Of a stretch of 64,000 bases of DNA, positions 4,613 to 27,051 are shown piece by piece. How positions within the stretch are numbered: the stretch's first letter is position 1; each line of letters starts with the position of its first letter. The notes under the pieces are model-generated. The model was not told the origin of the DNA and did no database searches. It saw only the letters and a list, made by a program, of their open reading frames with translations. Source of the stretch: an uncultured Planctomycetota bacterium (GTDB lineage Bacteria > Planctomycetota > Planctomycetia > Isosphaerales > Isosphaeraceae); contig CAWJTV010000029.1 in the NCBI GenBank assembly GCA_963845755.1, positions 288,001-352,000 on the forward strand, given 5' to 3'. The position numbers and the translations under genes were made by a program.

Positions 4613-4700
4613 CGAATCTCCCGGCACACCCCATCTATCAGGCCACACCGCCAAGGCGTCTCGCGAGCAACGACAATTGTAAATGGGAGGAATCGGGTCG

Positions 4701-10484: not shown

Positions 10485-10835
10485 GATGTTGGATCCTTCG
10501 TTCATTCGACTGATCTGCGTCGATGTTCGTGCTTGCATCGAATCGCGGCGTCCCGAACCGAGTTCGATGCGAGGGGACACCGCCCAGGATTCCCGGGGCG
10601 TCCTCCGCGGCGGTGCAACTCCGACGCGCGATATCCGGATGCGCGAGGAGTTCCACCTTGATCCATTTTACAGGAACCCGGTGGTCAAGACCAGACCGAT
10701 GGAGGGCCGATCGCGTCGGTTGACATGAAGAATCCCCGTAAGATGTTGAGGGGATCGGGCGATCTTACGGTCGTTAATCTCAGGCGGAGTGAGGCGAGAT
10801 TTGTTGACCTGCCCACGGTGATCTTTCCCCGCTCT

Positions 10836-11906
10836 TCAACCGATCGTGGCGGCGGGTAGAGCCTGGGAGGCGCCGAAGACCTTCAAGTCGCGGGGAACGA
10901 CGAAGATGTCGTCTCCGGGCTGCAAGTCCAGCTCGGCTCGGCGCTCGCGGGAGACCTGGGCGCGGACCTCCGTACCGTCCTTGAGGAGGAGCTCCAGACG
11001 AACGAGCCCGCCCAGCGGGACCACCTGGCAGACCCGCCCGGGCCAGGAGGGATGGCCGTTGAGCTGGCGGGTCACGTCGATGTCGTGGGGTCGGACGTAG
11101 ATGGTTACCGGTCCGTCGGGTGCGGAGTGTCCCATCGGCGCGAGGATCCCGTCTCCCAGGACCGCCTGACCATCGCGGCAACGGCCGCGCAGGACGTTGA
11201 CCGAGCCGAGGAACTCGGCCACGAACGGCGTCGCCGGATGCTCGTACAACTGCTGGGGCGGACCCATCTGCTCGACGCGGCCCTTGTTCAAGACGATCAC
11301 CTGGCCCGCGACCTCGAATGCCTCCTGCTGGTCGTGCGTGACGAACAGGCTGGTGACATGGACCTCGTCGTGCAGCCGGCGGAGCCAGGTGCGCAACTCG
11401 TCGCGCACGCGGGCATCGAGGGCGCCGAAGGGCTCGTCGAGGAGCAGGACCCGGGGCCGCGGGGCCAGTGCCCGCGCCAGGGCCACGCGCTGCCGCTGGC
11501 CACCCGAGAGCTGCGACGGATATCGATCCGCGTAGCCGCTCATCTGGATCAGCTCGAGCAATTCCTCGACCCGTGCGCGGATCTCCGCCCGGGGAAGCTT
11601 CTGGACCTCCAGGCCGAAGGCGATGTTCCGGCGGACTGTCATGTGGCGGAACAGGGCATAGTGCTGGAAGACGAACCCGACCCCGCGGCGCTGCACGGGC
11701 AAATCGGTCGCGTCTTCGCCGGTCAGTTCCACGGTCCCGGAGTCGGCCGGCTCCAGGCCGGCGATGATCCGGAGCAGCGTGCTCTTACCCGAGCCCGACG
11801 GGCCGAGCAGGGCCACAAGCTCCCCCGCCGGGACCGCGAACGTCACATTGTCGACGGCCTGGAACGACCCGAACCGCCTGGCGAGGTTCTCAACGCGGAT
11901 AGCCAT
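10836..11906 (-). CDS. cysA: Sulfate/thiosulfate ABC transporter ATP-binding protein
   Basis: [36 protein letters not shown]-terminal TOBE; downstream of cysTW. Confidence 0.95.
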
Positions 11907-11954
11907 GTCGGCGCCCTCTCCCTCACGCGGCCTTCGGCCGCGACTGAATAAGGT

Positions 11955-12045
11955 TTGAGATTCAGGATTCAAGATTTAAATATCAAAACTCCAGAATCAC
12001 TCCATTGGGAATCTCGGATCTCGAATTCTGAATCTTGAATCTGGT
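11955..12045. repeat. Heptamer GATTC/GAATC repeats in inverted arrangement
   Basis: gagattcaggattcaagatt ... gaatctcggatctcgaattctgaatcttgaatc between cysW and cysA. Confidence 0.7.
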
Positions 12046-12114
12046 GAATGCGATGATTGCGTGCCGGCCACCCGGCCTGAGCGCCAGGTCGAAGGCAAGA
12101 ATTCGGAAATCCCT

Positions 12115-12999
12115 CTAGTGCTTTTGCGTTCCCTCTCGGATCGCCAATCGCCGGCGGATCCGATCCATGCCCACGAGCAATGCAAACGAGATCCCCGCCA
12201 GCAGCAGGCTGGCGGCGTACGCCCCTTCCGGTCGGAAACTTTCGATCCCGTCGTGGATGTAGAGCGTGGCTGTCTGGGTGTGGCCGATGAGGTTGCCCGA
12301 GACGACGAGCAGGGCCCCGAACTCGCCGAGCGATCGGGCGATCGTCAGCGTCACGCCGTAGCAGAGACCCCAGCGGATCAGGGGCAGCGTCACGCGCCAG
12401 AACGTCTGCATGCGGCCTGCCCCCAACGTGTAGGCCGCTTCCACCTGATCGGTGCCGAACTCGCGGAGCACGGGGACGACTTCGCGGACCACGAACGGGA
12501 GGGTCACGAACATCGTGGCCAGGACCATGCCCGGCACCGCATAGACCACCCGGTAGCCCGCGGCTTCGATCCCGCGCCCCAGCCATCCCTCCGGCCCGTA
12601 GAGGATGACCAGCATCAGGCCGGCGATCACCGGCGAGACGGCGAAGGGCAGATCCACCAGGCCATCGGCCAGCGATCGGCCCCAGAAGCGTTGCCTGACC
12701 AGGACCAGGGCGAAGGCCACGCCGAAGATCGTGTTGATCGCGGTCGCCACGGCCGTGATCCCCAGCGACAAGCCGAAGGCACGCTGGAACTCCGGCGCGG
12801 CCAGCGCCTGGGCGAACGGCCGCCAGCCTCCCGCCAGCACCTGGCGGGCCAGCGCACCCGCCGGCACCAGGATCAACAGGGCGAACCAGCCCAGGACGAC
12901 GATATTCAGCAACCAGCGGCCCAGCGGGAGACTCCGAGGGCGCGCGGGCGTTGCCGGCTCGATCGGGCGAGCGATGGGACGGAGGACCTCAGTGGCCAT
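12115..12999 (-). CDS. cysW: Sulfate ABC transporter permease
   Basis: DLPFAVSPVIAGL, EAAYTLGA, ARSLGEFGA. Confidence 0.93.
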   Translation of the reverse strand: MATEVLRPIARPIEPATPARPRSLPLGRWLLNIVVLGWFALLILVPAGALARQVLAGGWRPFAQALAAPEFQRAFGLSLGITAVATAINTIFGVAFALVLVRQRFWGRSLADGLVDLPFAVSPVIAGLMLVILYGPEGWLGRGIEAAGYRVVYAVPGMVLATMFVTLPFVVREVVPVLREFGTDQVEAAYTLGAGRMQTFWRVTLPLIRWGLCYGVTLTIARSLGEFGALLVVSGNLIGHTQTATLYIHDGIESFRPEGAYAASLLLAGISFALLVGMDRIRRRLAIREGTQKH

Positions 13000-13819
13000 C
13001 GAACCCTCCTTGCCGGCGCTGGAGAAGGTTCAGGGCGATCAAGATCGCCAGCGAAGAGGCCAGCAGGACGACCGAGACGACCATCGCCCCGTGGCGATTG
13101 CCCCCCTCGATCTCGCCGAAGATGTACAGCGGGGCTGTCGCCGTCTCCATGGGCCGGTTACCGGCGACCAGCACGACGCTGCCGAACTCGCCGAGGGCGC
13201 GGCTGAACGCCAGCGCCGAGCCGGTCAGGACCGCGGGCCGGAGGGCCGGCAACGTCACACGAAGAAAGGTCCTCCACGGTCCGGCGCCGAGCGTCGAGGC
13301 GGCTTCCTCCTCGGCCCGGTCCAGTTCCAGGAGCACCGGCTGAACGCTGCGGATGACGAACGGATACGTGACCAGCAGCAGCGCCAGGATAATGCCCGGC
13401 TGGTGGTAGACGACGCCCCAGCCGAACTTGCCCAGGATGGTCCCGGCCACGCTCGCCGGACCATATAAGGCGACCAGCATCACGCCGGTGACGATGGTCG
13501 GCACGGCGAACGGCAGGTCGATCAGGGCGTTGACCAGCCCCTTGCCGGGGAAGTCGTGACGCACCAGGACCCAGGCCGTAGCGGTTCCGAGGACGACATC
13601 GACGACCACCATGATCAGGGCCGTGGTGAACGTGAGCTTCAGGGCATGCCAGGCGAAGGGGTCACTCAGGGCCGACCAGAAGGCGGCGAGTCCCGGTCGC
13701 GCGGCGTCGAGGCCGATCGCCAGCATCGGCAGCACGACCATCACGCCGAGGTAGGACAAGGTGGCCCCGCGAAGCAGCAGGTCCGCGGGAGCCGTGGCGA
13801 TCGCGGTTCGGGACATCAT
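12989..13819 (-). CDS. cysT: Sulfate ABC transporter permease
   Basis: DLPFAVPT, EEAASTLGA, RALGEFGSVV. Confidence 0.93.
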   Translation of the reverse strand: MMSRTAIATAPADLLLRGATLSYLGVMVVLPMLAIGLDAARPGLAAFWSALSDPFAWHALKLTFTTALIMVVVDVVLGTATAWVLVRHDFPGKGLVNALIDLPFAVPTIVTGVMLVALYGPASVAGTILGKFGWGVVYHQPGIILALLLVTYPFVIRSVQPVLLELDRAEEEAASTLGAGPWRTFLRVTLPALRPAVLTGSALAFSRALGEFGSVVLVAGNRPMETATAPLYIFGEIEGGNRHGAMVVSVVLLASSLAILIALNLLQRRQGGFDGH

Positions 13820-13820
13820 C

Positions 13821-14873
13821 TCACCTCCCTTTCGCCTGCGAGGTGAAGATCGATGTCCAGGTCCCCGCGGGTCCGTAGACCTCGTCCTGCAATGCGCCCC
13901 AGCCGCCGAGATCGGCCATGGTGAACAGGCTCGATGGCATCGGCGGCTTATCGGAAGTCTCGACAGCGGCCGGATCGGGTTTGACAGGGCGGAAGCCGTA
14001 ATCGGCCAGGATCCCCTGCCCCTCGGGCGAACGCAGAAATGCCAGGAATGACGCGGCCAACTCCCGGTTACCGTGCTTCGCGAGGGAGGTCTCGACGACG
14101 GCCGCCGGGCTCTCGATCACGAGGGTTGCGGGCGGGATCACGTAGGGGATCTCCTGGCCCGCCTTGCGCCGCAGGAGCAGCTCGTTCTCGTAGGTGACGA
14201 GCGCGTCGCCCGTACCACGTTCGAAGTTGGCCACGCTCTGGCGGCCGGAGGGGTCCATATTGACGACGTTGGCCTGGATCCGAGACATCAGGTCACGGAC
14301 GGCGGCACGATCGGGTTTCCCGTCGTGGGCGCGCTTCGATTCCAGCAAGGCGGCGCCGTAGATCGCGTTGATGTTCCAGCGGGCTCCGCCGGAGGTCTTC
14401 GGGTCGGGGTAGAGGACGCCCACCCCCGGACGGGCCAGGTCGGCCCAGTCCTTGATGCCTTTCGGATTACCGGGCCTGTGGCCGATGACGACGAGGCTGT
14501 GGCTGATGATGCCCTTGTCGGGGCCGTCATCCCAGTCGGCATTGACTCGCCCGGCCTTCACGAGGAGCTCCATGTCGCCGGAATGGGAGAGCACCACAAC
14601 GTCGGCATCGAACCCCGTGGCGACCGAACGGGCCTGGGCTCCCGAGGCGTTGTACGATTCTTCGAACCGCACCTTGCGGCCGGTCTTGCGCTTCCACTCG
14701 GCTTCGAATGCGGGCAGGAGGCCATCATGGAACGCCTCCTTCACCACCGAATAGGCGCCGAGCTCCAATACGTCGGTATCGGGGTCGGCCGCTGGGGAAC
14801 ACCCGGCCGTGAGCCCGCACAGGGCCAGGGCCGCCGTCCCCAGGAAAATCCAGGCATTCCGCCGCATCACCAT
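13821..14873 (-). CDS. sbp: Sulfate/thiosulfate-binding lipoprotein
   Basis: Lipobox LTAGC, SGAQARSV, GNPKGIKDWADL, PDPKTSGGARWN, YENE. Confidence 0.93.
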   Translation of the reverse strand: MVMRRNAWIFLGTAALALCGLTAGCSPAADPDTDVLELGAYSVVKEAFHDGLLPAFEAEWKRKTGRKVRFEESYNASGAQARSVATGFDADVVVLSHSGDMELLVKAGRVNADWDDGPDKGIISHSLVVIGHRPGNPKGIKDWADLARPGVGVLYPDPKTSGGARWNINAIYGAALLESKRAHDGKPDRAAVRDLMSRIQANVVNMDPSGRQSVANFERGTGDALVTYENELLLRRKAGQEIPYVIPPATLVIESPAAVVETSLAKHGNRELAASFLAFLRSPEGQGILADYGFRPVKPDPAAVETSDKPPMPSSLFTMADLGGWGALQDEVYGPAGTWTSIFTSQAKGR

Positions 14874-14906
14874 CTCCTTCTGATCCGGGATCTCCGGGGA
14901 GGATGC

Positions 14907-15110
14907 TCAATCGCTCCCGGAGGCTTCCGCGCCGCCCGGATTGCCGTCGTCCGGGAGGAGTGAAGAGTCCGGTTTCACGTGGGGTAAGAGGGTCGGGTCG
15001 GTGTCCGGACGCATCGGCCGGGGTGCGCCGGTCTCGATCGACCTCGCCTGGAGCCGCGCGGCGAAGAATTCGGCGAGCAGTCGTCTGGTAAAGTCGCTGG
15101 ACGGATTCAT
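14907..15110 (-). CDS. Small hypothetical protein
   Basis: Co-oriented, fills the gap between lipoprotein gene and sbp; amphipathic FTRRLLAEFFAARL. Confidence 0.45.
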   Translation of the reverse strand: MNPSSDFTRRLLAEFFAARLQARSIETGAPRPMRPDTDPTLLPHVKPDSSLLPDDGNPGGAEASGSD

Positions 15111-15207
15111 GAACCGAGATCCTCGGGACAGGGACATGGGCGGCCGGGCATTCGACGCACGGCACCACCTTGGATTCCCACCGCTCGATGAAAGGGGCTC
15201 CGCGGCC

Positions 15208-15669
15208 TCACCTCAAACGAATCGGCTCGAGTTGATTGCTCTCGGCTCGCACGGTGACGACCAGGCCGGAGCTGTCCTCGTCGCCGTACTTGCCCGGAAA
15301 GGGCGGCTTCTTCCTGGATGTCGCGGCCGCCTGCTGCAACCGGGGTGACTCGACGCGGAGCTTGTAGTCCCCGGCCGGCGCGCCGTCTCCCGATCCACCC
15401 GTAACCAGGGAAAACGTCCCGTCCGAACTGATGACACCGCTGGGGGTCAAGGGCAGGTCGCCCTTCGGCACGAAGTAGATCCATCCCTCGCTCAACGGCT
15501 TACCATCGGCGAGCAGGACCTTGCCCTTGACCTCGTAGACGTGGAGGGACGGTAGCGAATCCGAGTTGTGACAGCCGCCCAGCCCCGCCAGCAGGGCCAC
15601 GACCGGGCCGGCCAGCCACCGAGAGCCGTAATGCCTCCGGTCCGCATGAACTATGGTCGATGCAGTCAT
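15208..15669 (-). CDS. Planctomycete lipoprotein (carboxypeptidase-regulatory-like fold), typical DUF1559 partner
   Basis: Lipobox LGGC; VKGKV...DGKPL, DGTFSL, GAPAGDYK, PGKY..SGL. Confidence 0.85.
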   Translation of the reverse strand: MTASTIVHADRRHYGSRWLAGPVVALLAGLGGCHNSDSLPSLHVYEVKGKVLLADGKPLSEGWIYFVPKGDLPLTPSGVISSDGTFSLVTGGSGDGAPAGDYKLRVESPRLQQAAATSRKKPPFPGKYGDEDSSGLVVTVRAESNQLEPIRLR

Positions 15670-15813
15670 TTCAGAATCTCCCCAGAGATAGATGAGCAAC
15701 CAATCAAACCGGTCGAGAGGGCTCACCAATCCTTGAGCCGAGCGGCCTCGGAGGCCGATCCGAAGTGACGGCCCGAAGTCCTCCGACCCCGGGCCGCGCG
15801 AGACGCGCCTCAC

Positions 15814-16893
15814 TCAGTACTGATCGGAAGAGATGGTCTCGTTGCCCGACAGGGTGAGGAGCGACCGGAACGCCACCAGGTTGATGCTGTCCTTGATGAA
15901 GTGGACGGAACCGTCGCCGAACAGGGCGTTGATGCCACCAGGGTGGAAGGAGTACGGCTCCTCATTCGGGCCCGCCTGGTTGCCGGCCGTCACGATGGTC
16001 GAGGGCCAGGCCACTCCCTCATTGGTCGGAATTCCCTTGTTGTTGGGCTGGCCCGACGTGCCGAACGCACAGCCCGGGTCGGCCCACCTCCAGTATCGGT
16101 GTCGTGCTGTTGGCCCACCCGCGGGCCCCTGTCCCCGAACGACGGGATACTGACCTTCGAAGTACTGGCTGACGAACCGCTCGTCGCGGCCGGCGCACTC
16201 GATAATCGCGATCGTGTTGCTCAACCCGTCGGTGTCCTCGCTGATGAGGGTCTTACCGTCCTTGAGTAGACCCTTGGCGGCCACATTCTTGTTACGGTAG
16301 GGAACGATCGTCGTCGCACCGAGGCCGCCGGTGACCAGAGTGCCACCGACCACATTGATATCGGTATACACCGACGGCGCGTAATCCATGTAGCCGTAAC
16401 CGGCTGTCTGGGTCTTCTCGAAGGGCGAGGCGTTGGGGTCATTCTGGGCGGTGTCACGTCCCGCGGGACGGGGGTCGGACGGGCAGATAAATACCGTCAT
16501 CACTGGCGAGGCACCCGTGAAGTTGCCGCCGCTGGCGTCGTTATACTCGTACGCGAAATTCAGCGCGTTGTACTGCGAACCCCCTTCGATGTAGCTAAGC
16601 ACCCGGGCCTGGACGCTGAAGCCGGTGTCGGGGAACATCACCGATGGGGGCGAGGTCGTCAGATTGATCGACTTGCAGGCTGGTGGGAACACGCCGTTGC
16701 TATTCTCATAGTTATGCAACGCCAGGCCCATCTGCTTGAGGTTATTGGTGCACTGCGCCCGCCGGGCCGCCTCGCGTGCCGACTGGACAGCCGGCAGCAA
16801 TAGCGCGATCAGGACCGCGATGATCGCGATCACCACCAGGAGCTCGATCAGCGTGAAGCCGGGTCTTTGCGGCCGAATCCTCGGGGAAACCAT
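15814..16893 (-). CDS. DUF1559 prepilin-like protein (N-methylation site, H-X9-DG motif)
   Basis: [50 protein letters not shown]. Confidence 0.95.
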
Positions 16894-17157
16894 GCTCAAT
16901 CTCCTTTCAAATCTGTAAACGGTCATCAGAAAATGTGATCACTTTAGTAAAAGACAGCCCTCGGCAGCACCGGGCATGCGGACGATCGACTGGATCGTCA
17001 TCGCGCACCCCTCCCGTGCCGCATCGCCAGGCATGCGGTGATCCTCGGCTCTTCAACATCTCACGTTCCAGGGCGCGGAATGCTCCGAACCCCGACGTAT
17101 GGGGTCTGCTCCGGGACCGATGCGGGCGCCTCCGCCCGCCAACGACATCACCCCTAG

Positions 17158-17173
17158 TGCACGTGGCGTGCCA
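17158..17173 (-). promoter_or_regulatory. Sigma-54 (-24/-12) promoter for the DUF1559-lipoprotein-sbp-cysTWA unit
   Basis: Minus strand TGGCACGCCACGTGCA = GG-N10-GC, close to the TGGCACG-N4-TTGCW consensus. Confidence 0.8.
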
Positions 17174-17245
17174 CCGCGCGAATGCTGCGACAACGCAACA
17201 ATTCCCGCCCTCCGAGGCGGTCAAATCCCTGGCAACCCACCCTGG

Positions 17246-17304
17246 CCGTGATATTTCCCGGGTAAACCGTGATATGTGCTAGGACAAACCGTCATATTTG
17301 ACGG
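17246..17304. promoter_or_regulatory. Triple upstream activator site array
   Basis: CCGTGATATTTCCCGG (17246), CCGTGATATGTGCTAG (17267), CCGTCATATTTGACGG (17289, inverted-repeat arms). Confidence 0.8.
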
Positions 17305-17377
17305 TTACTGGATTCGCGACGTCGATTCTGCCCATGCGGCCTCGACGCATGGAAGAGGGAAGCGATCGTGGACAGTC

Positions 17378-17644
17378 TCACGATCGGAACGACTCGAGAC
17401 CGGCCCTGCTCCGCGGATGACACGCTTCCGAGACCACGATGCTCGAGAGGATCCCTGTGGCAGCGAGGATCACTATGCCGATCGTACCGACGACGAGCAC
17501 GATCATCAGGACGGGCAATATACAGAGGACGAAGGCGACTCGAAAGAGTCGATCCAACAGAAACGTAACCATCGATGGGGTTTCCGTCGATCGAGACGCC
17601 TTGACGGCTGCGTGCGATGGTATCGATTGCAGTTGGGAAATCAT
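17378..17644 (-). CDS. Small membrane protein
   Basis: Long hydrophobic stretch VAFVLCILPVLMIVLVVGTIGIVILAATGIL; co-oriented with neighbours. Confidence 0.65.
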   Translation of the reverse strand: MISQLQSIPSHAAVKASRSTETPSMVTFLLDRLFRVAFVLCILPVLMIVLVVGTIGIVILAATGILSSIVVSEACHPRSRAGLESFRS

Positions 17645-17720
17645 GGCCAGCTCCTTTACGTGTTTTAACAAGAACTGTAGTGGTTCAAGCTATCGCGTCC
17701 GGGGCCCATCCCACTCGCGC

Positions 17721-18206
17721 CTACATGGCCAGGGACGCCCGAGACTGAGCTTTCGATCGTCGTGGTTGCTGATCGGCTGGGACATTGGCTGCAGGTCCGC
17801 GATAGGACCCTCGACGGAGGTACGTGTCGAGGACACGACCGATTTGGTGCTCATGATGGGTGCGACTGATATACTCGGTCACGCCCATGCGATAGAGTCG
17901 CGTTGCCTGCTCGACGCGATACGATTCGGAGACGACCAGTACGGGGACGCGATGCGCCAGTACGGTCGTCGTCCAGAGGAGCCGATTCAACCCCTCGTAA
18001 CGGGCCCCGCGGCCCCAGTGAAGGACGATCAACCGCGGCGGATCGGCCTTTTCCAGCGAGAGACAGGCGTCCTCGATCGTGGCCGCCACGGCCATCCGGG
18101 ACGGCCCGGCCTCGCAATGCCCGAGGTGCCATTGGAGTAGCCGGAGTAGCTGATCGTCCGACGAGATCGTCAGGAGAGTAAGGTCGAGCATGCCTGTCGG
18201 CTCCAT
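17721..18206 (-). CDS. Atypical stand-alone receiver-like domain protein
   Basis: CheY-like pattern (LLTISSDD, LIVLHW, VPVLVVS, GVTEYI) lacking the phosphoacceptor Asp and conserved Lys. Confidence 0.65.
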   Translation of the reverse strand: MEPTGMLDLTLLTISSDDQLLRLLQWHLGHCEAGPSRMAVAATIEDACLSLEKADPPRLIVLHWGRGARYEGLNRLLWTTTVLAHRVPVLVVSESYRVEQATRLYRMGVTEYISRTHHEHQIGRVLDTYLRRGSYRGPAANVPADQQPRRSKAQSRASLAM

Positions 18207-18281
18207 GAGCATTTGCGGTCTGTCCTGCCATCGACATCTCGCGGGGCCATCCCATCGCGCGATTCCTCTATCTAGCACCTC

Positions 18282-19662
18282 TCATGCCAGGATCTCTTTG
18301 ACGACTCGCCCGGCCACGTCGGTCAGGCGGAAGTCCCGCCCGGCATAGGGGTAGGTCAACCGGCGATGGTCGAGGCCCACGAGGTCCAGAAGCGTGGCAT
18401 GAAGGTCGTTAGTGTGCATGCGTCCCTCAACGGCGCGGATGCCGTATTCGTCGGTCGCTCCGTATGAGAACCCTGGTTTGACGCCGGCACCGGCAAGCCA
18501 CATTGGGTAGCCGGTGATGTTGTGGTCGCGGCCGTTTTCGCCCTGGGCGGTCGGCTGGCGTCCGAACTCGCTGCCGAACAGGACCAGAGTCTCATCCAGC
18601 AACCCGCGCTGGTCGAGGTCGGCCAGGAGGGCAGCGGTCGGCTGATCGACGGACGCGCAGCGGTCGATCAATCCCTGGTGCAGGTTGGTGTGGTGATCCC
18701 AGCCAGGCTGGCAGATCTCGACGAACCGCACACCGGCCTCGCAGAGCCGTCGAGCCATGAGGCACTGGCGTGCAAAGGCTCCGGCCGGGCCGGGCTTCAC
18801 GCCGTAGGCGTCGAGCACGGGCTGGGGTTCTCGGGAAATGTCGAGCAGTTCGGGTACCTTCCCCTGCATGCGAAACGCCAGCTCGTACGATTGGATGATG
18901 CCGTCGACCTCGTCCGGCGCACTCGGGTTCGCCGCAAGGGTGCGGTTCATGGCCTGGATCAAGTCCAGTTGCCGGCGCTGCTGCCGGGTTGTGACCTGGG
19001 GTTTCAGGTTCGGGAAGTATCCCTGATCGTTGATGCGTGTGCCCTGGTACTGGGCGGGGAGGAAGCGCGCTGCCGTAGTTCACGGCCCCGCCAAAGTTGG
19101 GCGGCGGATTGATGGTGACGTACCCGGGCAAGTCCTGGTTCTCGGTGCCGAGCCCGTAGAGGAGCCAGGCCCCCATGCTCGGCCGGGTGAGAGCGGCGTT
19201 GGCGCTGCCGGTGTGCAACTGGACCACCGCCTGGGGGTGTGCCGGCGTATCGGTGTATAGTCCGCGGAGCCAGCAGAGCTTATCGGCGTGGGCCGCCATG
19301 TGCGGGAGCAACTCGGAGAACCAGGCCCCCGAATGGCCGTGCTGGCGGAACTTGAACTTCGAGGCGGTCAAGGTGCCGCCGCCCGGGCCGGGCTTGCCCC
19401 CGTCCTTCTGGAGCTGCGGCCGATACTCGAAGGTATCCACTTGCGAGATCGCCCCCTGCATGAACAGGAAGATGATCCGCGTCGCTTTCGGCTTGAAGTG
19501 CGGCCGCCTCGGTGCCAGAGGATGCGGCGCGCCTCCGCCGGAGGCTCGAGCGGCGGCCTGTCCGAGCAGGCCGGCGAACGCCAGGTAACCAAACCCCGCG
19601 CCCGCCAATTGGAGGACCTGGCGTCGCGAAAGCGGGGAAAAATGGAAATTTTTAACGAACAT
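18282..19662 (-). CDS. DUF1501 family Tat-exported protein (frameshift ~19065)
   Basis: SRRQVL Tat motif, IIFLFMQGAISQVDTF, RPSMGAW, CLMARRL, WDHH, EFGR, GRDHN. Confidence 0.92.
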
Positions 19663-19702
19663 ATCAGTACTCCTTAAATTAAAGGGGTCGGGTGATTGGG
19701 GG

Positions 19703-22312
19703 TCACTGGATGTAACGGAACTCGGCGGAGCCGAACAGCACTTGACCGAGGGCGAGCCAGGCCGCAGTGCGGGCATCGCGCGCCCGGATCACGGGCTCGA
19801 CGATTGGCTCATCGGTCTGGTCGATCTCGTCCGGGTTCTCGGGCTGTGGTTTCGGCTTCGCCGGCGTGGTTGGGTCGTCGGCGCTCGCGACTTGCGGTTC
19901 GAAGGAGGCCGCGGTGCCCAGCTCGGCCTGATCGGTCTCGTACTCCGCGAGGAAGGCACGGCTCCTCTCGATCTCGCCCTCCTTCGGTGAACGTCCCAGA
20001 ACCAGGCGGAACATCGCCCGAATCCGATCTTCGTCGGCGCCTTCCAGATCGAGGAGGCGCCTGGCCATCGCGAGCGATTGCCGACGTACGAATGGGGAGT
20101 TCAGGAGGTAGAGTGATTGGCCCGGGACCGTGGTAATCTGGCGTCGCCCCGTGACCAGCGTCTGCTCGACCGGGTCGAAGGCCTCCAACGGCCGGGGCGT
20201 GATCCCCCGCATCAACGGCAGATAGACACTGCGATGCGTGCTCGCATCTGCCTTCTCCAGGAGGGCGCGGGCCTCCGGACCGTTGTCGCGGACCTCGACC
20301 ATCTTCAGTTCCTGAACTGGTGAGCTGCCCTGTTGCTGGGGCGTCAGGCTGCCGGCCGAGGCGAGCATCGCGTCGCGGACCTCCTCGGCATCCAGGCGAC
20401 GAGGGCTGTGCCGCCAGATCAGTGCGTTCGCCGGATCGGCAACGAGGTGCTCCGGGACCGCCCGGGAGCCGAGCTGATACGACCGGCTGAGGACGATCGT
20501 ACGCACGAGCCGCTTGATCGACCGCCCGTCCTGGAGGAAGCGGGTTGCGAGGTGGTCGAGCAGCTCGGGGTTCGAGGGCGGGTCTCCCGTGGCGCCGAAG
20601 TTGTCCACGGTCGAGACGATCCCACGGCCAAACAGGTGATACCAGATGCGGTTGACGATCACCCTCGAGGTGAGAGGATTGCCGGCGCCTGTGAGCCAAC
20701 GGGCCAGTTCCAGGCGCCCGCTGTGCTTCGGATCGACCTTCGGGGCACCAGGGACCTCGAAGGCCGTCAGGAACCCGCGAGGGACCGCCGGCCCGAGCCG
20801 CTCCGCCTGACCGCGGATGCGGACCTCGGTATCGCCAACCTGCCCGGCATCCCGGACGCCGTGGACCGCATGGCCGCGAGCGGCCGGATCGGTGAAGGCG
20901 AGCAGCTCGCCATAGAGTCGGTCGTACTTGCGGCGATACTCCCGCTGCTTCGGAAGGCCGTTCGGCCCCTTGGCCAGACCTTCCCGGGTACCGCGGATCT
21001 CGTCCCAGGCTTTCTTCGCCTCGGCGACCTTGGCTGTCAGCTCCCGCACCTCCTTCTCGGGGGGCGGCGGCAGGTCTCCCGAGAGCTTCACAAGTAGCGA
21101 GGGATCGTAATATGCGAGCCCACCTCCGCCCATCTTGCTGCGTAGCCCCGCGCAGTTGTCGGTGCTGGTGAAGATCCCGGCCAGAGCGTAGTAGTCGGTG
21201 GTCGGGATCGGGTCGAACTTGTGGTCGTGGCAGCGGGCGCAGCTCACCGTCAGGGCGAGGATTGACCGGCTCACGGCGTCGATCTGATCGTCCACGTTGT
21301 CCATCAGGAACCGGACCTTGAACCGCTGGTTCACGTCCTTGACCCCGAGGGCAAGGAAACCCGTGGCGGTCAGCAGTCGGTCTCGCTCCGCGGTCGACGC
21401 GGCGGGAAGGAGATCGCCGGCAATCTGCTCGGTGACGAACCGATCGAACGGCACGTCGGCGTTCACCGCGTCGATGACATAGTCGCGGTACTTCCAGGCG
21501 TGCGGGTAGGGAATGTTCCGAGACGGGCCGGTGGACTCAGCGTATCGGGCCACGTCGAGCCAGTGCCGCCCCCAGCGCTCGCCGAAGTGCGGCGAGGCGA
21601 GCAGCCCATCAACAACCCGGCCGAAGGGATTCGGGGAGGCATCTTCCAGAAATCTATCGATCTCATCCGGGGTCGGCGGCAGGCCGATCAGGTCGAACGT
21701 GACCCGGCGAAGGACGGTGATCTTGTCGGCGTCCTCGACCGGCTTCAGTCCCGCCTCCTCGAGCCCGGCCAGGACGAAACGATCGAGTTCATCCCTCGGC
21801 CACGACGTTTCACGCACGGCCGGCAACTCGGGATTGGTGAGCGGTTGCCAGGCCCAGTGCTCCTTCCGGAGCGGCTCATACCAATCTTTCGGCCGACCCA
21901 GCGACGTGGGAACCTTCACCGACGGCCATTGAGCTCCCTCGCGGACCCATCGAGTCAGGGCGGCGATCTGCTCCTTGTTCAGCGGTTGGCCTTCCTTGGG
22001 CATCCGCCGTTTCGGGTTCGCGTGGGTCACCCTCCGGAGCAACAAGCTAGACTCCGGGTCCCCAGGCACCACGGCTGCTCCGTTGTCCCCGCCGACGAGC
22101 AGCCCGTTGCGATCGTCCACCCGGAGTCCACCCGCCGGTTTGGTGTCGGCCGAGTGACACGCATAGCAGTGGTCCACCAGGATCGGCCGGACATTCTCCT
22201 CGAAGAACTCCACCGACGCATTGTCGCGTGGCGCCTGTCCCCAGGCCGCGGACGGCACCGCGGCGAGGATCGCGAACCCGAGTGAGCCAATGAATCGAGA
22301 TCGATAAACCAT
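19703..22312 (-). CDS. Planctomycete cytochrome c / DUF1549 / DUF1553 (PSD1) protein
   Basis: CYACH, HWAWQP, GERWGRHWLDVARYA, CARCHDHKFDP, NRIW, PELLDHLA. Confidence 0.95.
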   Translation of the reverse strand: MVYRSRFIGSLGFAILAAVPSAAWGQAPRDNASVEFFEENVRPILVDHCYACHSADTKPAGGLRVDDRNGLLVGGDNGAAVVPGDPESSLLLRRVTHANPKRRMPKEGQPLNKEQIAALTRWVREGAQWPSVKVPTSLGRPKDWYEPLRKEHWAWQPLTNPELPAVRETSWPRDELDRFVLAGLEEAGLKPVEDADKITVLRRVTFDLIGLPPTPDEIDRFLEDASPNPFGRVVDGLLASPHFGERWGRHWLDVARYAESTGPSRNIPYPHAWKYRDYVIDAVNADVPFDRFVTEQIAGDLLPAASTAERDRLLTATGFLALGVKDVNQRFKVRFLMDNVDDQIDAVSRSILALTVSCARCHDHKFDPIPTTDYYALAGIFTSTDNCAGLRSKMGGGGLAYYDPSLLVKLSGDLPPPPEKEVRELTAKVAEAKKAWDEIRGTREGLAKGPNGLPKQREYRRKYDRLYGELLAFTDPAARGHAVHGVRDAGQVGDTEVRIRGQAERLGPAVPRGFLTAFEVPGAPKVDPKHSGRLELARWLTGAGNPLTSRVIVNRIWYHLFGRGIVSTVDNFGATGDPPSNPELLDHLATRFLQDGRSIKRLVRTIVLSRSYQLGSRAVPEHLVADPANALIWRHSPRRLDAEEVRDAMLASAGSLTPQQQGSSPVQELKMVEVRDNGPEARALLEKADASTHRSVYLPLMRGITPRPLEAFDPVEQTLVTGRRQITTVPGQSLYLLNSPFVRRQSLAMARRLLDLEGADEDRIRAMFRLVLGRSPKEGEIERSRAFLAEYETDQAELGTAASFEPQVASADDPTTPAKPKPQPENPDEIDQTDEPIVEPVIRARDARTAAWLALGQVLFGSAEFRYIQ

Positions 22313-22368
22313 GAAAATGTCCGCCTTGCTTTGGGTATGGTGTGGGTCGGTGTTCCGCCGGCCGGGCG

Positions 22369-22868
22369 TCAGTAGGAGTCCGCGGAGACCACCTCGCCCT
22401 GCCTGACCGAGCCGAGCGCCCAGACGGTTGGACCGCTGGTGCTATCCTTGAGGAACCGGACGGATCCGTCGAGGATCAGGACATGTTGATCACGTCCCCG
22501 CCCCCAGCCGCGTCATTGAAGATGCCGACTTGGAAATTCAGGGCGTTGTAGAGCGACGCTTGCTCGAGGTAATTCAGCATGCGGGCGTGCACACTAGGGC
22601 CGTGATTATTATAAATAGTTGTCGAATTGATGTCCCCGTTCGGGAAATACGCCAGCGCCTCCGGCGGGAAGCAATCATTGACCTGGTGGTAGTTGTGCAG
22701 GCCCAGACCGATCTGCTTGAGGTTGTTGACACACTGGATCCGCCGCGCCGCCTCGCGTGCCGCCTGCACAGCCGGTAACAGCAGGGCGATCAAGACCGCG
22801 AGGATCGCGATCGCCACCAGTAGTTCGATCAGAGTGAACCCGAATCGCGTGCGCCGTCTTCGGGTCAT
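22369..22868 (-). pseudogene. DUF1559 gene with a large internal deletion
   Basis: N-terminal half ends ...GDVINMS*; the adjacent frame immediately gives the family C-terminus [37 protein letters not shown]; the central region and the His of H-X9-DG are missing. Confidence 0.85.
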
Positions 22869-23182
22869 CCCGGATCGCCCGACGGCTCGCGACTCCTCGC
22901 GATCTACTCGGCCGGGGCGATGAAAGGATCCAGAGCTCAGACGATAAGTCGTCGACATGCCAGACTTCCCTGGTCTGCGCCTGCCTCTGGTTTCTCCAGT
23001 CAGCGGTCCGCGGGGATCGGTATGGGACCTCTCGATGACGAGTCGGTGACTTGTGGGATCGGAGTCTCGGTGGTGACTGTGGTTCGCGGCGTGTCGGGGT
23101 GTCCCATCAACGGGGAGACAAGGGATCGCAGATGGCTTTCAAGGTGTCGGGCCGGCCAGAAACCTGCTCAATCAGAGCATAT

Positions 23183-23374
23183 TCACTTGAGCCGTTGTTT
23201 TTCCATGCGATCAATCTGAATCACGACGCCGTTCTGGATGACGATTCTCACCTCGCCGAACCGGATTCCGTTGATCGCCGCCCGGATCGGCTCGAGATCG
23301 ATCGCCACACCAGTCGGAGTCCGCCGGTTAACCCCCGAGTCCTGTGAATCATTCTCGATGGATAAAGACGGCAT
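23183..23374 (-). CDS. YezD / DUF2292 family small protein (OscA-like)
   Basis: IRAAINGIRFGEVRIVIQNGVVIQIDRMEKQRL; RBS GGGGAGAGG upstream. Confidence 0.88.
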   Translation of the reverse strand: MPSLSIENDSQDSGVNRRTPTGVAIDLEPIRAAINGIRFGEVRIVIQNGVVIQIDRMEKQRLK

Positions 23375-23514
23375 TGGTACCTCTCCCCGACCACGAACGT
23401 CCTACCGGGCTGTTGACTCGGCACAATCAGAACGCCGACATCCCGACTTCTCGGCATCCAGACCGAGCCCCTTCCCTTGCGGGGCCACTTCGGCGCGAAT
23501 CGTGCTCACCGATT

Positions 23515-23530
23515 TGCAGGTGCCGTGCCG
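23515..23530 (-). promoter_or_regulatory. Sigma-54 (-24/-12) promoter upstream of yezD
   Basis: Minus strand CGGCACGGCACCTGCA = GG-N10-GC. Confidence 0.75.
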
Positions 23531-23602
23531 AACCGAGAAGAATCCGGCATCGCTGCGAAATCCGGCTCGATTCTCGATGAGACGGTCGGAGCTTGCCGAG
23601 GA

Positions 23603-23660
23603 CCGTGACATTTGCCAGGATATCCGTGATATTTGCTCGGATAACCATCATATTTGACGG
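23603..23660. promoter_or_regulatory. Triple upstream activator site array
   Basis: CCGTGACATTTGCCAG (23603), CCGTGATATTTGCTCG (23624), CCATCATATTTGACGG (23645); same motif as 17246-17304. Confidence 0.8.
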
Positions 23661-23669
23661 GAGAGTCGG

Positions 23670-25286
23670 ATGGAGCGCCATGCCAGCCTGCTTCTTGATG
23701 TCTGGAGGGAGGTCTGCCGCCACATCGAGATCGGCGAATCGATCGAGCGGCTTGCCCCGATCCTGATGCGTCGCTTGCCGATCGAGTTGATCCTGATCCG
23801 GAGGCTCGACCCGGCGCGATCTTGCATCGAGACGGTGGCCACGGGCCACTGTCGTCCGGCGCCGGAGGGGTCGCCTTCGTCCGGACCGGTCCGGAGCAAC
23901 GTGGCCGCGGCCGAGTTGGAGCAACTGGCCGCATGGTGCGGCCGGGGCAAGGTGCTTCGCGGCACAGACCGGAACCTCCGGCGACGACTACCCGAACTGT
24001 TGCCGGAAGGGATCGAGGGGCAGGTCCTGGCCGGCCCGCTCATCGTACCGGATGCGCCGCCGGGGATCCTGATCCTGATCGGTTCATCCCGGCAGGAGCC
24101 GCGCGATGATCACCTCGAGCTCGTGCAGGCGCTGCTCGAGCCGTTTGCGGTGGCACTGGAGAACGATCACCGGCTGCGCGAGCTGGTCTCACTCCGCGAG
24201 GCGCTCGAGGCGGACAAGATGTCGCTGCTCTCCCGATTGGGCCGGCATGACATCAGCGACTCGATCGTCGGGGCGGACACCGGCCTGAAACCGGTGATGG
24301 ATCAGATCGAGCTGGTCGCACGATCGGATACGCCCGTCCTGATCCTCGGTGAGACGGGTGCGGGCAAGGAGGTCGTGGCGCGGGCGATCCATGAGCGATC
24401 CCGGCGGGCCGTGGGTCCGTTCCTGAGGGTCAATTGCGGTGCCATCCCGCCTGACCTGGTGGACTCGGAGTTGTTCGGCCACGAGAAGGGGAGCTTTACC
24501 GGGGCGGTCGGGACGCGAAAGGGGTGGTTCGAGCGGGCAGACGGGGGCACGCTCTTCCTCGATGAGTGCGGTGAGCTGACGCCGGCCGCCCAGGTGAGGC
24601 TGCTCCGGATCCTCCAGGATGGCACGTTCGAGCGGGTCGGCGGCGAGCGGCAGTTGCATGTCGACGTCCGGATCGTGGCCGCAACCCACCGTGAACTGGC
24701 GGAGATGACCGGCGACGGGCGGTTCCGCCAGGACCTGTGGTATCGCCTGGCGGTCTTTCCGATCCGCCTGCCGCCCCTGCGCGACCGACCGGCCGACATC
24801 CCGCCCTTGGCGGCCCACTTCGCCGTGAGGGCCGCCAAGCGGTTGGGGCTGCCGATGATGGCACCCTCCGCGGAAGATGTCAATTTGCTGGTCGCCTATT
24901 CCTGGCCCGGCAACGTGCGCGAACTCGCAGCCGTGATCGAACGCGCGGCGATCCTCGGCGGCGGGGTCCGGCTCGACGTGGCCCGAGCCCTGGGGCATCG
25001 GCCTCCAACCGCTTCGTCGGCGCCTTCGAATGCCGAGGCGTCCATCCCACCAGCGGACACGACGGAGCCGCTGGCCCCCCTGGGGATCGCCATGGCCCGG
25101 CACATCGAGGCGGCCCTGACACGGACCGGGGGACGCGTCGAAGGGCCTTCGGGAGCCGCCGCCCTCCTGGAGATCAATCCACACACGCTCCGCGCTCGCA
25201 TGCGTAAGCTCGGCGTCGCCTGGCAGGGCTTCCGATCCTCCGCACCGGCGTGGAGGCAGGGGCCGGAGCCCGACGGTCAGAAGTAG
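23670..25286 (+). CDS. Sigma-54 enhancer-binding protein (FhlA/HyfR-like; GAF-like N-terminus, AAA+, HTH)
   Basis: GETGAGKE, SELFGHEKGSFTGA, LFLDE, WPGNVREL, GAAALLEINPHTLRARMRKLG. Confidence 0.95.
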   Translation: MERHASLLLDVWREVCRHIEIGESIERLAPILMRRLPIELILIRRLDPARSCIETVATGHCRPAPEGSPSSGPVRSNVAAAELEQLAAWCGRGKVLRGTDRNLRRRLPELLPEGIEGQVLAGPLIVPDAPPGILILIGSSRQEPRDDHLELVQALLEPFAVALENDHRLRELVSLREALEADKMSLLSRLGRHDISDSIVGADTGLKPVMDQIELVARSDTPVLILGETGAGKEVVARAIHERSRRAVGPFLRVNCGAIPPDLVDSELFGHEKGSFTGAVGTRKGWFERADGGTLFLDECGELTPAAQVRLLRILQDGTFERVGGERQLHVDVRIVAATHRELAEMTGDGRFRQDLWYRLAVFPIRLPPLRDRPADIPPLAAHFAVRAAKRLGLPMMAPSAEDVNLLVAYSWPGNVRELAAVIERAAILGGGVRLDVARALGHRPPTASSAPSNAEASIPPADTTEPLAPLGIAMARHIEAALTRTGGRVEGPSGAAALLEINPHTLRARMRKLGVAWQGFRSSAPAWRQGPEPDGQK

Positions 25287-25586
25287 AGCTGGACGCGCCA
25301 CCAGAAGACATTGGCCGTCGGCTGGTATCTCCCTTTTGCAAAAGTGATAGGATTGTTGAACTCCTGGTGGTTCCAGTCCAAGTCCATCTTGAGATATTGA
25401 GTCATCCACCAGTTGATGCCGATGTCGGTCTGCCAGACGCGGTTGGCATTGCCCGTCGTGCTCGCCAGCCCGTAGCTGGAGACCGAAGCCCCGATATCCA
25501 GGTAACCGTAACGTCCGAAGACCTCCCACGCTCCCCAGCCCCGTTCTCCGGCCCTCAGGGTGAACGGGTTCTTCGGCTTGTCGACG
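25277..25586 (-). pseudogene. C-terminal remnant of an OprO/OprP-type anion-selective porin (not in ORF track)
   Basis: Manual translation: KPKNPF...GWGAWEVFGRYGYLDIG...DIGINWWMTQYLKMDLDWNHQEF...FWWRVQLYF*; terminal Phe beta-barrel signature; no start codon. Confidence 0.8.
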
Positions 25587-25612
25587 TGACTCGCCCGCGC
25601 AATCCGGCCGAT

Positions 25613-26527
25613 TCATATCTTGGGTGTGCGAATGGGAGAGTGGACAGGAGGACGATCGGGATGGTCGTTCACGTCCGGCTCCAGCAGGGCCGTTCCTGCC
25701 ATCAATGCGAACCCGGCCAGGAGGGCGGCGGAGAGTTTGAATCGGTCGTGCGAGTGGAATTGAAGCTCTGGCAAGAGGTCACTCAACGCGATGCACAGGA
25801 ATGTTCCGGCCGAGAAGGCCAGCGCGCCGGCGGTCCATGACTCGGGAGAGAACCACGCCGAAGCCTGCGTGCCGATCCAGAAGAGGGCCACTCCCGCCGG
25901 GATCATCAGGGCGAAGCCGAGATTGACGAGATGGGTGGATCGCCGCTCGGCGCCCGCGCGGAGCATCAGTGTGGTGATCGTCAGGGCGTCGGCCGGCTTG
26001 TGGACGAGGGTTGCCAGGAAGACGCCCAACCCGGCCCCCATCATGCCGTTGCCGACCCGAAAATCGGCGGCGACCGCGCTGGCCAGGGCGATGCCGCCCG
26101 CCAGGGAATGCACCGCCAACCCGAATGCCGCCGAGCCCCACGAGAGCACGACGAAGGGATTCGATCCCTTCGCGCCCGACCCGCAGTGATCGTGCGTGCC
26201 TGCATGAGCGGGATGCGCCACCCTCGAGACTCTCTCGCCGGCCGGTTCTTCCGTTTCGTGGTGATGGAACGAGAAGAACCGCTCCAGAAAAAACAGGGCG
26301 AGCAAGCCGAGAGCCGTCCAGCGGACCGTCTCGGCCGATCCGACCCGCACTGCCTCCGGAATCATGTGGAAGAACGCGGCGCCCAGCATCGCACCGGCCG
26401 AAAAGCTCAGGTACACTTGCAGACGGGTGTGATTCAAGGCCGTCGCCAGCGGCAGGATCCCTCCCAGGACGCTAACGATCACGATGGCCGTGCAGAACGC
26501 GCTAATCGTGATCGTCATCGGGCTCAC
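25613..26527 (-). CDS. ZIP family metal transporter
   Basis: SAGAMLGAAFFHMIPE, His-rich loop, VHS...G, HKPAD, SDLLPE. Confidence 0.92.
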   Translation of the reverse strand: MSPMTITISAFCTAIVIVSVLGGILPLATALNHTRLQVYLSFSAGAMLGAAFFHMIPEAVRVGSAETVRWTALGLLALFFLERFFSFHHHETEEPAGERVSRVAHPAHAGTHDHCGSGAKGSNPFVVLSWGSAAFGLAVHSLAGGIALASAVAADFRVGNGMMGAGLGVFLATLVHKPADALTITTLMLRAGAERRSTHLVNLGFALMIPAGVALFWIGTQASAWFSPESWTAGALAFSAGTFLCIALSDLLPELQFHSHDRFKLSAALLAGFALMAGTALLEPDVNDHPDRPPVHSPIRTPKI

Positions 26528-26676
26528 CCCCGTTGCCGCGTGGTGCTCAACCCTTGTGGATGACTTTCCCCGACGAAATAATAATTGTTTGAAGTTGCAT
26601 TGTCAGGCCGCCCCTCCCAGGAATGACGCGAACAGCGCCCGGCCCGCCATTTCGAGCCTTTCAGCGAGGTGATGTC

Positions 26677-26964
26677 ATGTCCAAACTCAGCGAAGCCGAT
26701 ATCGTTGCGAGGCTGCCGGACGCCAAGGGTTGGGAACGTCATGGCGATATGCTGGTACGGACGTGGCAATTCCCCTCGTTCCGGCGTGCCCTGGAATTCG
26801 TGAATCAGGTCGCCGCCTTGATCGAGAAAACCGACCACCACCCGGATCTCATCGTGCAGTATCGCAACGTTCGGATCGAGATGTTGACTCACGACGTGGG
26901 TGGTTTGACCGAGCGCGATTTCGCGCTCATCGCCGAGATCAACGAACTTCCCACCGATCGCTGA
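26677..26964 (+). CDS. Pterin-4a-carbinolamine dehydratase
   Basis: DHHPD, THDVGGLTERDF. Confidence 0.92.
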   Translation: MSKLSEADIVARLPDAKGWERHGDMLVRTWQFPSFRRALEFVNQVAALIEKTDHHPDLIVQYRNVRIEMLTHDVGGLTERDFALIAEINELPTDR

Positions 26965-27051
26965 GCGCGCCGCAGCGAAGCTCGGCCCGCGCACTGATCC
27001 GGCGCGTTGGCGGGTTATCCAGGCGTCGCGGCGTTGCGCGCTGGGGATCGC

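Follow-up and report, generated by a model that had tools for sequence, protein, structure and literature searches.

The 64,000-nucleotide window analysed here comes from contig C29 of the 14.3 Mb, 88% complete genome of an uncultured soil planctomycete of the Isosphaeraceae (GCA_963845755.1), and holds a sulfate-uptake operon that faces a sigma-54 activator gene, the core of a candidate sulfur-limitation regulon. Twelve co-oriented genes on the minus strand, with yezD first and cysA last, lie opposite the divergent activator at 23670-25286; an earlier interpretation made from these letters alone (the sequence-only reading) had counted eleven or twelve. The series starts with yezD/DUF2292, a first DUF1559 gene (DUF1559 #1), a PSCyt1-DUF1549-DUF1553 gene, a DUF1501 gene, a receiver-like open reading frame (ORF) and a small membrane ORF, and continues with a second DUF1559 gene (DUF1559 #2), a lipoprotein gene, sbp, cysT, cysW and cysA. 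The four Sbp-CysTWA components lie in order and all score above sulfate ATP-binding cassette family cut-offs, CysW through a subfamily model only. The features are collected in Table 1.

Table 1 Features of the locus, in window coordinates; L011 and L021 are the corresponding loci of two related genomes.
Feature	Position	Strand	Remarks
CysA ATPase	10836..11906	-	TIGR00968 395.9, cut-off 342.75; PF17850
CysW permease	12115..12999	-	TIGR00969 294.6, above 240; TIGR02140 274.4, below 329.1
CysT permease	12989..13819	-	TIGR02139 279.2, cut-off 246.1
Sbp sulfate-binding protein, single-copy	13821..14873	-	TIGR00971 194.5, cut-off 155.5
Partner lipoprotein	15208..15669	-	lipobox GGC, no Pfam match; family recurs adjoining DUF1559
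DUF1559 #2, intact prepilin-like H-X9-DG protein	15814..16893	-	model pLDDT 87; PF07963, TIGR02532
Promoter 2, predicted sigma-54 -24/-12 box	17158..17173	-	from sequence; 73 nt from array 2
Array 2, three palindromes, predicted activator sites	17246..17304		sites at 17246, 17267, 17289
Small hydrophobic ORF	17378..17572	-	55% identity; kept in L011 and L021
Receiver-domain-like ORF	17721..18212	-	NtrX model E 5e-4 only; 57-59% identity in L011 and L021
DUF1501 with twin-arginine leader, frameshifted in assembly	18282..19662	-	frameshift near 19060-19150
PSCyt1-DUF1549-DUF1553 protein, 869 aa	19703..22312	-	two CxxCH (haem) motifs
DUF1559 #1, prepilin-like, internally deleted	22369..22958	-	stop at 22476; C-terminal remnant in other frame
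RNA hairpin 2, build as hairpin 1	22983..23004	-	~25 nt before DUF1559 #1 start
RNA hairpin 1, 3-bp stem, GA/A internal loop, 4-bp stem	23027..23047	-	
YezD/DUF2292 small protein, single-copy in genome	23183..23374	-	PF10055 56.2 bits
Promoter 1, predicted sigma-54 -24/-12 box	23515..23530	-	from sequence; 73 nt from array 1; geometry as in relatives
Array 1, three 16-bp palindromes with 21-nt period, predicted activator sites	23603..23660		sites at 23603, 23624, 23645
Sigma-54 enhancer-binding protein GAF-AAA+-HTH, 538 aa, GSFTGA loop	23670..25286	+	PF00158, PF02954
OprO/P-type porin C-terminal remnant	25277..25555	-	PF07396 E 8e-4 at 25367-25555; convergent with activator

The AAA+ domain of the activator (PF00158, 225 bits) carries GETGAGKE at residue 227, GSFTGA at 274 and LFLDE at 295, and is followed by a C-terminal helix-turn-helix (HTH); rpoN and -24/-12 promoters with upstream sites were found in the genome. 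Residues 1-176 resemble the GAF structure 3k2n_B (Z 14.9, rmsd 3.5, 166 aligned), and across 52 aligned relatives this region has an invariant W12, H18 and R44 and a nearly invariant C16. With its GAF-AAA+-HTH order, GSFTGA loop, divergent gene and several upstream sites the protein is akin to FhlA, NifA and NorR, but it differs from them in having a distinct palindrome, present in three copies with a 21-nt period, and sulfur-uptake targets, and it scored under the cut-offs of the named NCBIfam activators (best 25 of 27 families), reaching 331 against 529 for NifA, 319 against 476 for NorR and 314 against 830 for FhlA. The best match in this 88% complete genome to PRK12681, which we take to be the CysB model, reached 44.6 bits against a cut-off of 436. 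At L104:6202-9487, a second, broken activator copy was seen whose array faces genes for cysteine dioxygenase and an FAD/NAD-binding protein.

The sequence-only reading had proposed that two promoters in the run share an activator-site array, and both indeed have triple palindromes 73 nt from a -24/-12 box. A matrix for the palindromic site (consensus CCGTGATATATCACGG) was built from 212 sites in 83 loci, with the window, L011 and L021 held out and four duplicate loci dropped. When the whole 14.3 Mb genome was scanned, the window arrays scored 59.9 and 55.2 and a third array, at C5:657621, scored 43.7, whereas the next best score was 17.1; given this gap, the two window arrays are not chance occurrences. 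Triple arrays exceeded 100 of 100 pairwise shuffles in 79 of 86 loci (83 of these being the training loci), with a spacing mode of 21 nt, and in the three held-out loci they scored 51-55 against shuffle maxima of 1-6. A sigma-54 box lay within 130 nt of the array, mostly 68-74 nt away, in 52 of 66 scorable loci versus 311 of 2000 random windows. Array 2 is kept at the equivalent position in L011 (score 51.5) and L021 (62.0). Scores of at least 20 were reached at 17/20 further activator loci versus 0/20 sbp loci from genomes without an activator match, 7 of which are headed by an Rrf2 gene; since arrays occur at activator loci and are absent from activator-less sbp loci, the array belongs with the activator. 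A scan of 10500-25700 for sigma-70 promoters and terminators gave chance-level results.

To place the activator among its relatives, we compared the best 80 of 434 confirmed loci, 59 of which include at least 4 kb upstream. In 65 of the 80, the divergent strand carried a gene for sulfur uptake or scavenging no more than 10 kb away (sbp in 48, TauE in 14), and by their titles the records span Planctomycetia, Phycisphaerae, Myxococcota, deltaproteobacteria, Spirochaetales, Gammaproteobacteria and Hydrogenedentota. When 150 Planctomycetia genomes were sampled evenly, 33 had the activator, and in 26 of these it lay within 10 kb of sbp; of the remaining seven, four had no sbp match and three had sbp on another contig. 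No activator match was obtained in 54 of the 83 sbp-bearing sample genomes (nine candidates scored per genome). A cultured member of the Isosphaeraceae, record L025 (Tautonia sp. JC769), combines activator and array with DUF1559, lipoprotein and sulfatase genes. The linkage of activator and sulfate uptake, for which a synteny search had been suggested, is therefore conserved across phyla, including the array and the sigma-54 box. In four Phycisphaerae loci (L064, L072, L075, L089) the activator stands near SBP-DsrE fusions, a ferredoxin and an NrfD-cytochrome c3 fusion.

The third and last array of the genome (C5:654699-657680; L101:9700-12680) comes with a sigma-54 box, tandem hairpins, a DUF1559 gene and a frameshifted arylsulfatase gene, whose product has CSPTR (a C-x-P-x-R motif) and matches PF00884 on both frameshifted halves. 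The C5 DUF1559 gene is one of just 2 among 124 in the genome with a sulfatase gene directly after them; the counterpart of the C5 unit in L105 has FGE and two sulfatases. A profile search of 56 other genomes found ten arrays apart from an activator, five with sulfur genes (sulfatases, sbp-cysTWA, cysteine synthase, a CBS-type synthase and cysteine dioxygenase among the genes behind them), two with prepilin-like genes and three with no sulfur link. We consider it likely that the locus belongs to a sulfur-limitation regulon in which a GAF-domain sigma-54 activator, acting at triple-palindrome arrays, governs sulfate uptake together with exported scavenging proteins. Membership of the regulon rests on several computed results; the signal and the biochemical roles we infer.

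Two small elements at the head of the run, yezD and the RNA hairpins, recur with sulfur genes elsewhere. YezD scored under the OscA cut-off (NF033785, 37 bits versus 85). Among 34 yezD matches in the 150-genome sample, 16 lay at sbp or the activator, 11 at a DUF1553-DUF1501 cassette and 7 elsewhere. The leaders of DUF1559 #1 and of the C5 gene share 82% identity and carry the sole tandem hairpin pairs of the genome. Across 14 leaders, 6 of 14 base pairs have two-sided changes, in a set found partly by its pairing pattern, which favours covariation. A hairpin stands 3' of 14/28 yezD genes in the examined loci, compared with 0/28 upstream controls and 8/5000 random windows; in L142 it precedes a porin gene. 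Rfam covariance models gave nothing at E up to 1 in window positions 10000-27000, a search in which short elements can be missed.

DUF1559 #2 is 81-89% identical to copies in the sbp operons of L011, L021, L065, L038 and L052. It has a prepilin cleavage motif and, in its predicted model, a long N-terminal helix (residues 3-54); compared with known structures, the model gave weak matches, 24 of 24 rows being pilins or pseudopilins (best Z 4.6, rmsd 3.6, 116 aligned). Foldseek returned no match at E 0.001, and the two-lobed solute-binding fold that the Pfam name SBP_bac_10 would imply was absent from the structure matches listed, which does not amount to its exclusion. Among the sbp-containing activator loci with at least 4 kb, those with Planctomycetia titles had DUF1559 in 20/21 and a porin in 0/21, so that DUF1559 is a regular member of these loci, as its suggested link to sulfate uptake had implied. 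In other phyla a porin was found in 9/10 and DUF1559 in 0/10, Phycisphaerae had a porin in 2/4, and the two occurred together in 0/80 activator loci. A short prepilin-type gene without a DUF1559 match follows cysA in L084 and L100, possibly as a third filler of the slot.

In a midpoint-rooted FastTree phylogeny of 169 proteins, two DUF1559 lineages occupy the sbp-operon slot. One, a class-wide clade whose arginine motifs are conserved, gave 44 strong matches in the 150-genome sample, 19 of them adjoining sbp; when 20 of the other 25 copies were examined, 5 lay beside cysTWA or a cysA-like gene and 1 behind an array, so that 25/39 examined copies adjoin sulfate-uptake genes or an array. We rejected DUF1559 #2 as a single class-wide sulfate orthologue, as it belongs to a dnaE-linked subfamily and the class-wide clade is absent from this genome. 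A DUF1559-lipoprotein pair is conserved directly behind dnaE in Isosphaeraceae (C33:81282-87163 of this genome; L154-L168).

Starvation proteins spare sulfur, and the combined cysteine and methionine (Cys+Met) content of the sulfur-linked DUF1559 groups was 1.7% (n=14) and 1.6% (n=26), versus 3.6% in 83 paralogues and 2.4% in the dnaE-type sisters; DUF1553 orthologues likewise had 1.5% versus 2.1%. It is conceivable, though unlikely, that the DUF proteins are in the sulfur regulon as sulfur-poor replacements or as parts for remodelling the envelope and not as machinery for capture and release. The low Cys+Met of the regulated DUF1559 and DUF1553 proteins would suit such a role, as would the non-sulfur home beside dnaE of the subfamily of DUF1559 #2 and the lack of a recognised ligand-binding fold in that protein. 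It is less easily squared with the exchange of position between DUF1559 and porins, which extends to the hairpins in L142, with the pairing with sulfatases and FGE, or with the conserved arginines of the class-wide clade.

The DUF1553-DUF1501 pair adjoins the activator and importer in three related genomes only, namely the window, L011 and L021. DUF1501 is intact in L011 and L021, and its frameshift in the window is plausibly an assembly error, since other window genes and the C5 sulfatase are split as well; contigs from three or four DNA sequencing runs did not reach across it. The protein lacks the formylglycine C/S-x-P-x-R motif and, by eye, has an invariant His in H-P-Q/E-A-V-x-Q-L-H-T-G at the corresponding spacing. 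Its likeness to the alkaline-phosphatase/sulfatase core is weak (HHalign probability 82% over 110 columns), as is its best match to a solved structure (E 0.015; 25 of 26 rows sulfatase-type), and an Atlas search with its own family removed gave scores of 0.80 or less throughout. A single-copy DUF1553 orthologue was found in 40 of the 150 sample genomes. In 20 examined orthologous cassette loci, where DUF1501 is 73-82% identical, yezD stands at the head in six, in the order of the window, and trails in one; a sulfatase gene lies within three, and an Rrf2 gene heads one. Arrays scored in L216, L217 and L222 were not counted, as they lie away from the cassette head.

CymR represses cysteine-synthesis genes, and a palindromic box over the -35 hexamer was observed upstream of rrf2-sbp in L113-L118, where the Rrf2 proteins have a three-Cys cluster; this box is likely to be the operator of a planctomycete CymR-like Rrf2. 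A first Rrf2-box matrix was built from six rrf2-sbp promoters, with 253 promoters as background, and a refined one from 17 sites, none of them from the cassette; promoter scoring was done without the low-GC loci L182, L183 and L185 and without L221 and L222. The refined box scored at least 11 upstream of 12/15 cassettes versus 14/253 background promoters, the other 5 of the 20 cassettes having no scorable head; the two window promoters scored 8.0 and 9.3. With the first matrix, the box scored 18.9, 17.6, 17.0 and 12.0 upstream of the four stand-alone genes most closely related to DUF1559 #2, and at least 13 in 4/11 scored stand-alone copies of the class-wide clade versus 3/253 background promoters. 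Because it overlaps the -35 hexamer, it is a moderate marker. Judged by promoter sequence, the cassette is under a predicted Rrf2/sigma-70 promoter in most Isosphaeraceae examined, which indicates that two different regulators, the activator and Rrf2, mark the same putatively sulfur-regulated cassette. The simplest reading appears to be that, in this lineage, the activator took over the control of the cassette from Rrf2. The earlier idea that the DUF1553 and DUF1501 genes are linked to the importer thus held only within a lineage (1/80 activator loci; 0/40 orthologues), but independent sulfur markers lie on the cassette itself.

The genome also has a cysH-rrf2-sat operon (C5:240107-243199) with an Rrf2-type box at cysH; the Rrf2 encoded there contains a single Cys and has Ile as its last residue. 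A matrix scan found no activator array at this operon or at cysK. The activator was said to act in place of CysB or CymR, and this stands for uptake and scavenging; it does not for cysH-rrf2-sat, which keeps Rrf2 without an array.

It would be improbable, though consistent with part of these data, that the activator controls sulfate uptake and that the DUF genes are passengers, abundant paralogues without a sulfur role. Such genes abound in this genome, with ~124 DUF1559, 64 DUF1553 and 81 DUF1501 matches; differing DUF1559 lineages fill the slot, DUF1553 and DUF1501 adjoin the activator in 1/80 loci, and DUF1559 #1 is deleted here. Passengers would, however, hardly be expected to have arrays of their own, as DUF1559 genes do, to remain 81-89% identical in related operons, as DUF1559 #2 does, or to be low in Cys+Met, and the Rrf2 box, yezD, hairpins and sulfatases accompany orthologues located elsewhere.

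DUF1559 #1 is ~215 residues shorter than the intact L021 copy. One 151-nt contig from run X1, with a depth of 2 and perhaps from the same population, spans the deletion junction without a gap, so the internal deletion is probably real.

Several observations weigh against a sulfur-limitation regulon that includes the exported proteins. The relatives compared are not independent, being kin and the best 80 of 434, and the TauE, DsrE, NrfD or Hdr-like genes at some activator loci fit the handling of sulfur compounds equally well; 3/10 arrays not linked to an activator have no sulfur connection. With DUF1559 #1 broken, promoter 1 yields no intact pilin-like protein. The split between porin and DUF1559 tracks taxonomy, L142 combines a porin after cysA with DUF1559 genes behind a second array, a planctomycete sbp operon in L129 contains a porin, and this genome encodes several other OprO/P porins. 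No sulfur neighbour was seen for 14/39 examined copies of the class-wide DUF1559 clade, and of the DUF1559 #2 matches from the 150 sampled genomes 2/36 lay at a sulfate locus and 9/20 examined beside dnaE. The C5 DUF1559 is not sulfur-poor (Cys+Met 3.9%) and DUF1501 barely so (2.9% versus 3.2%). For DUF1553, none of the 40 orthologues lay within 20 kb of sbp or the activator on the same contig (coordinates compared by eye), and in activator-bearing genomes the orthologue is mostly without an array. The first Rrf2 matrix has 443 matches above 12 in this genome, its box overlapping the -35 hexamer, and the box at the stand-alone relatives of DUF1559 #2 was noticed post hoc, in the control set. 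The sulfur-limitation regulon with exported DUF proteins put forward by the sequence-only reading is nonetheless supported, its linkage being conserved, with just particular subfamilies of the DUF families implicated.

In the regulon that we favour, the activator would very probably bind the arrays and open promoter 1 (yezD, DUF1559 #1, DUF1553, DUF1501), promoter 2, which would drive DUF1559 #2, the lipoprotein and sbp-cysTWA, and the C5 promoter, which would drive DUF1559 and the arylsulfatase. It would probably damp its own gene as well, because array 1 abuts the activator start, ending 9 nt ahead of it. The signal is probably low sulfur, which the GAF domain would sense through a ligand. 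Exchange with a CymR-like Rrf2 at sbp operons is a hallmark of starvation, as are sulfatase targets, yezD and proteins poor in sulfur. These features make it quite improbable that the activator is switched on not by starvation but by a compound of sulfur, be it thiosulfate, sulfite, sulfide or a sulfate ester, which the regulon would then handle. That alternative could be read from TauE opposite the activator in 14/80 loci, from the few loci with SBP-DsrE, NrfD, ferredoxin or Hdr-like genes, from cysteine dioxygenase behind one array and from the conserved C16 and H18 of the GAF region.

Downstream of the sensing of low sulfur, the proposed steps become more tentative. There is perhaps an even chance that YezD acts on the tandem hairpins and thereby gates expression of the gene behind them, in cis for promoter 1 and in trans for the C5 unit. 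Somewhat less assured is that the prepilin-like DUF1559 protein works with the lipoprotein at the envelope to trap sulfate or its esters, handing these on to Sbp or a sulfatase, a role held in other phyla by an OprO/P porin. The di-haem DUF1553 protein and the Tat-exported DUF1501 protein might, still more tentatively, act in the periplasm to free sulfur from an organic substrate. The furthest-reaching version, in which the DUF1559 pseudopilin and the lipoprotein form a substrate-specific, pilus-based import route through the planctomycete envelope that replaces outer-membrane porins and receptors, accompanied by a new cross-phylum activator, a YezD-RNA switch and a sulfur-freeing DUF1553-DUF1501 redox pair, is speculative and in our judgement rather doubtful.

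Some neighbouring features complete the description of the locus. An ORF at 14907-15110 was discounted as a gene, the corresponding gap being just 56 nt in L011. The cysW-cysA spacer (11945-12050) is AT-rich with imperfect heptamer repeats. Just downstream of cysA and on its strand, 8549-10505 encodes an AhpC/TSA plus copper monooxygenase-like protein, split in two frames and also present in L011, and selB at 3482-8513 is broken by frameshifts and runs into a long TPR-containing frame. On the far side of the activator, 25277-26518 holds a ZIP zinc transporter gene, then the C-terminal remnant of an OprO/P porin.

Sulfate importers of the sbp-cysTWA type are under CymR/Rrf2 or CysB control, and Pseudomonas has an oscA-sbp arrangement; OscA is named a sulfur starvation response protein in NCBIfam. 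These systems share the transporter and a small DUF2292 gene with the window, but here the uptake operon is predicted to be sigma-54-activated rather than sigma-70-repressed, with Rrf2 retained for cysH-sat. Among the closest known parallels to the activator is SfnR, a CysB-regulated sigma-54 activator of sulfate-starvation genes in Pseudomonas that drives dimethyl-sulfone genes (PMC8234197). Both are sigma-54 enhancer-binding proteins tied to sulfur limitation; as SfnR is described there, the present activator differs in its targets (a sulfate importer, TauE, porins, sulfatases and DUF modules), its N-terminal GAF domain and the lack of a CysB-level match. DVU2956 of Desulfovibrio vulgaris is, like the window activator, divergent from a transport operon, but that one-component sigma-54 activator is described, in the portion consulted, as having no N-terminal domain (PMC4641369), whereas the window activator has its GAF domain. 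The sections available give no substrate for PSCyt/PSD1 and DUF1501 modules (PMC3542564) or for N_methyl plus SBP_bac_10 proteins (PMC8567305, PMC2754498), and those of PMC11685898 do not mention pilin or DUF proteins. The window shares domain content, gene pairing and export signals with these modules, including DUF1559 flanked by signal-peptide genes, but unlike them, as far as those sections go, it has single orthologous lineages tied to sulfur through regulators, neighbours and composition. In the literature searched, which lay outside subscription journals, regulon databases and supplements, we found neither this activator family nor its sites described, nor any link between DUF1559 and sulfate; the activator and this variant of a sulfur regulon are apparently undescribed so far.

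The DUF1559, DUF1553 and DUF1501 families rank with the most expanded of Planctomycetota, and the literature examined, in the parts available, assigns them no substrate. The locus singles out orthologous lineages within them, for whose production sulfate withdrawal is a cheap predicted condition, and the two regulators and the RNA element make the function of three large families testable. It adds a regulator of sulfur uptake that is present in 33/150 Planctomycetia genomes of the sample and also occurs in records from Myxococcota, deltaproteobacteria, spirochaetes and gammaproteobacteria. Should the pilus-based import route prove true, DUF1559 and the DUF1553-DUF1501 pair would for the first time have a defined class of substrate, and the locus bears on how planctomycetes move solutes across their envelope.

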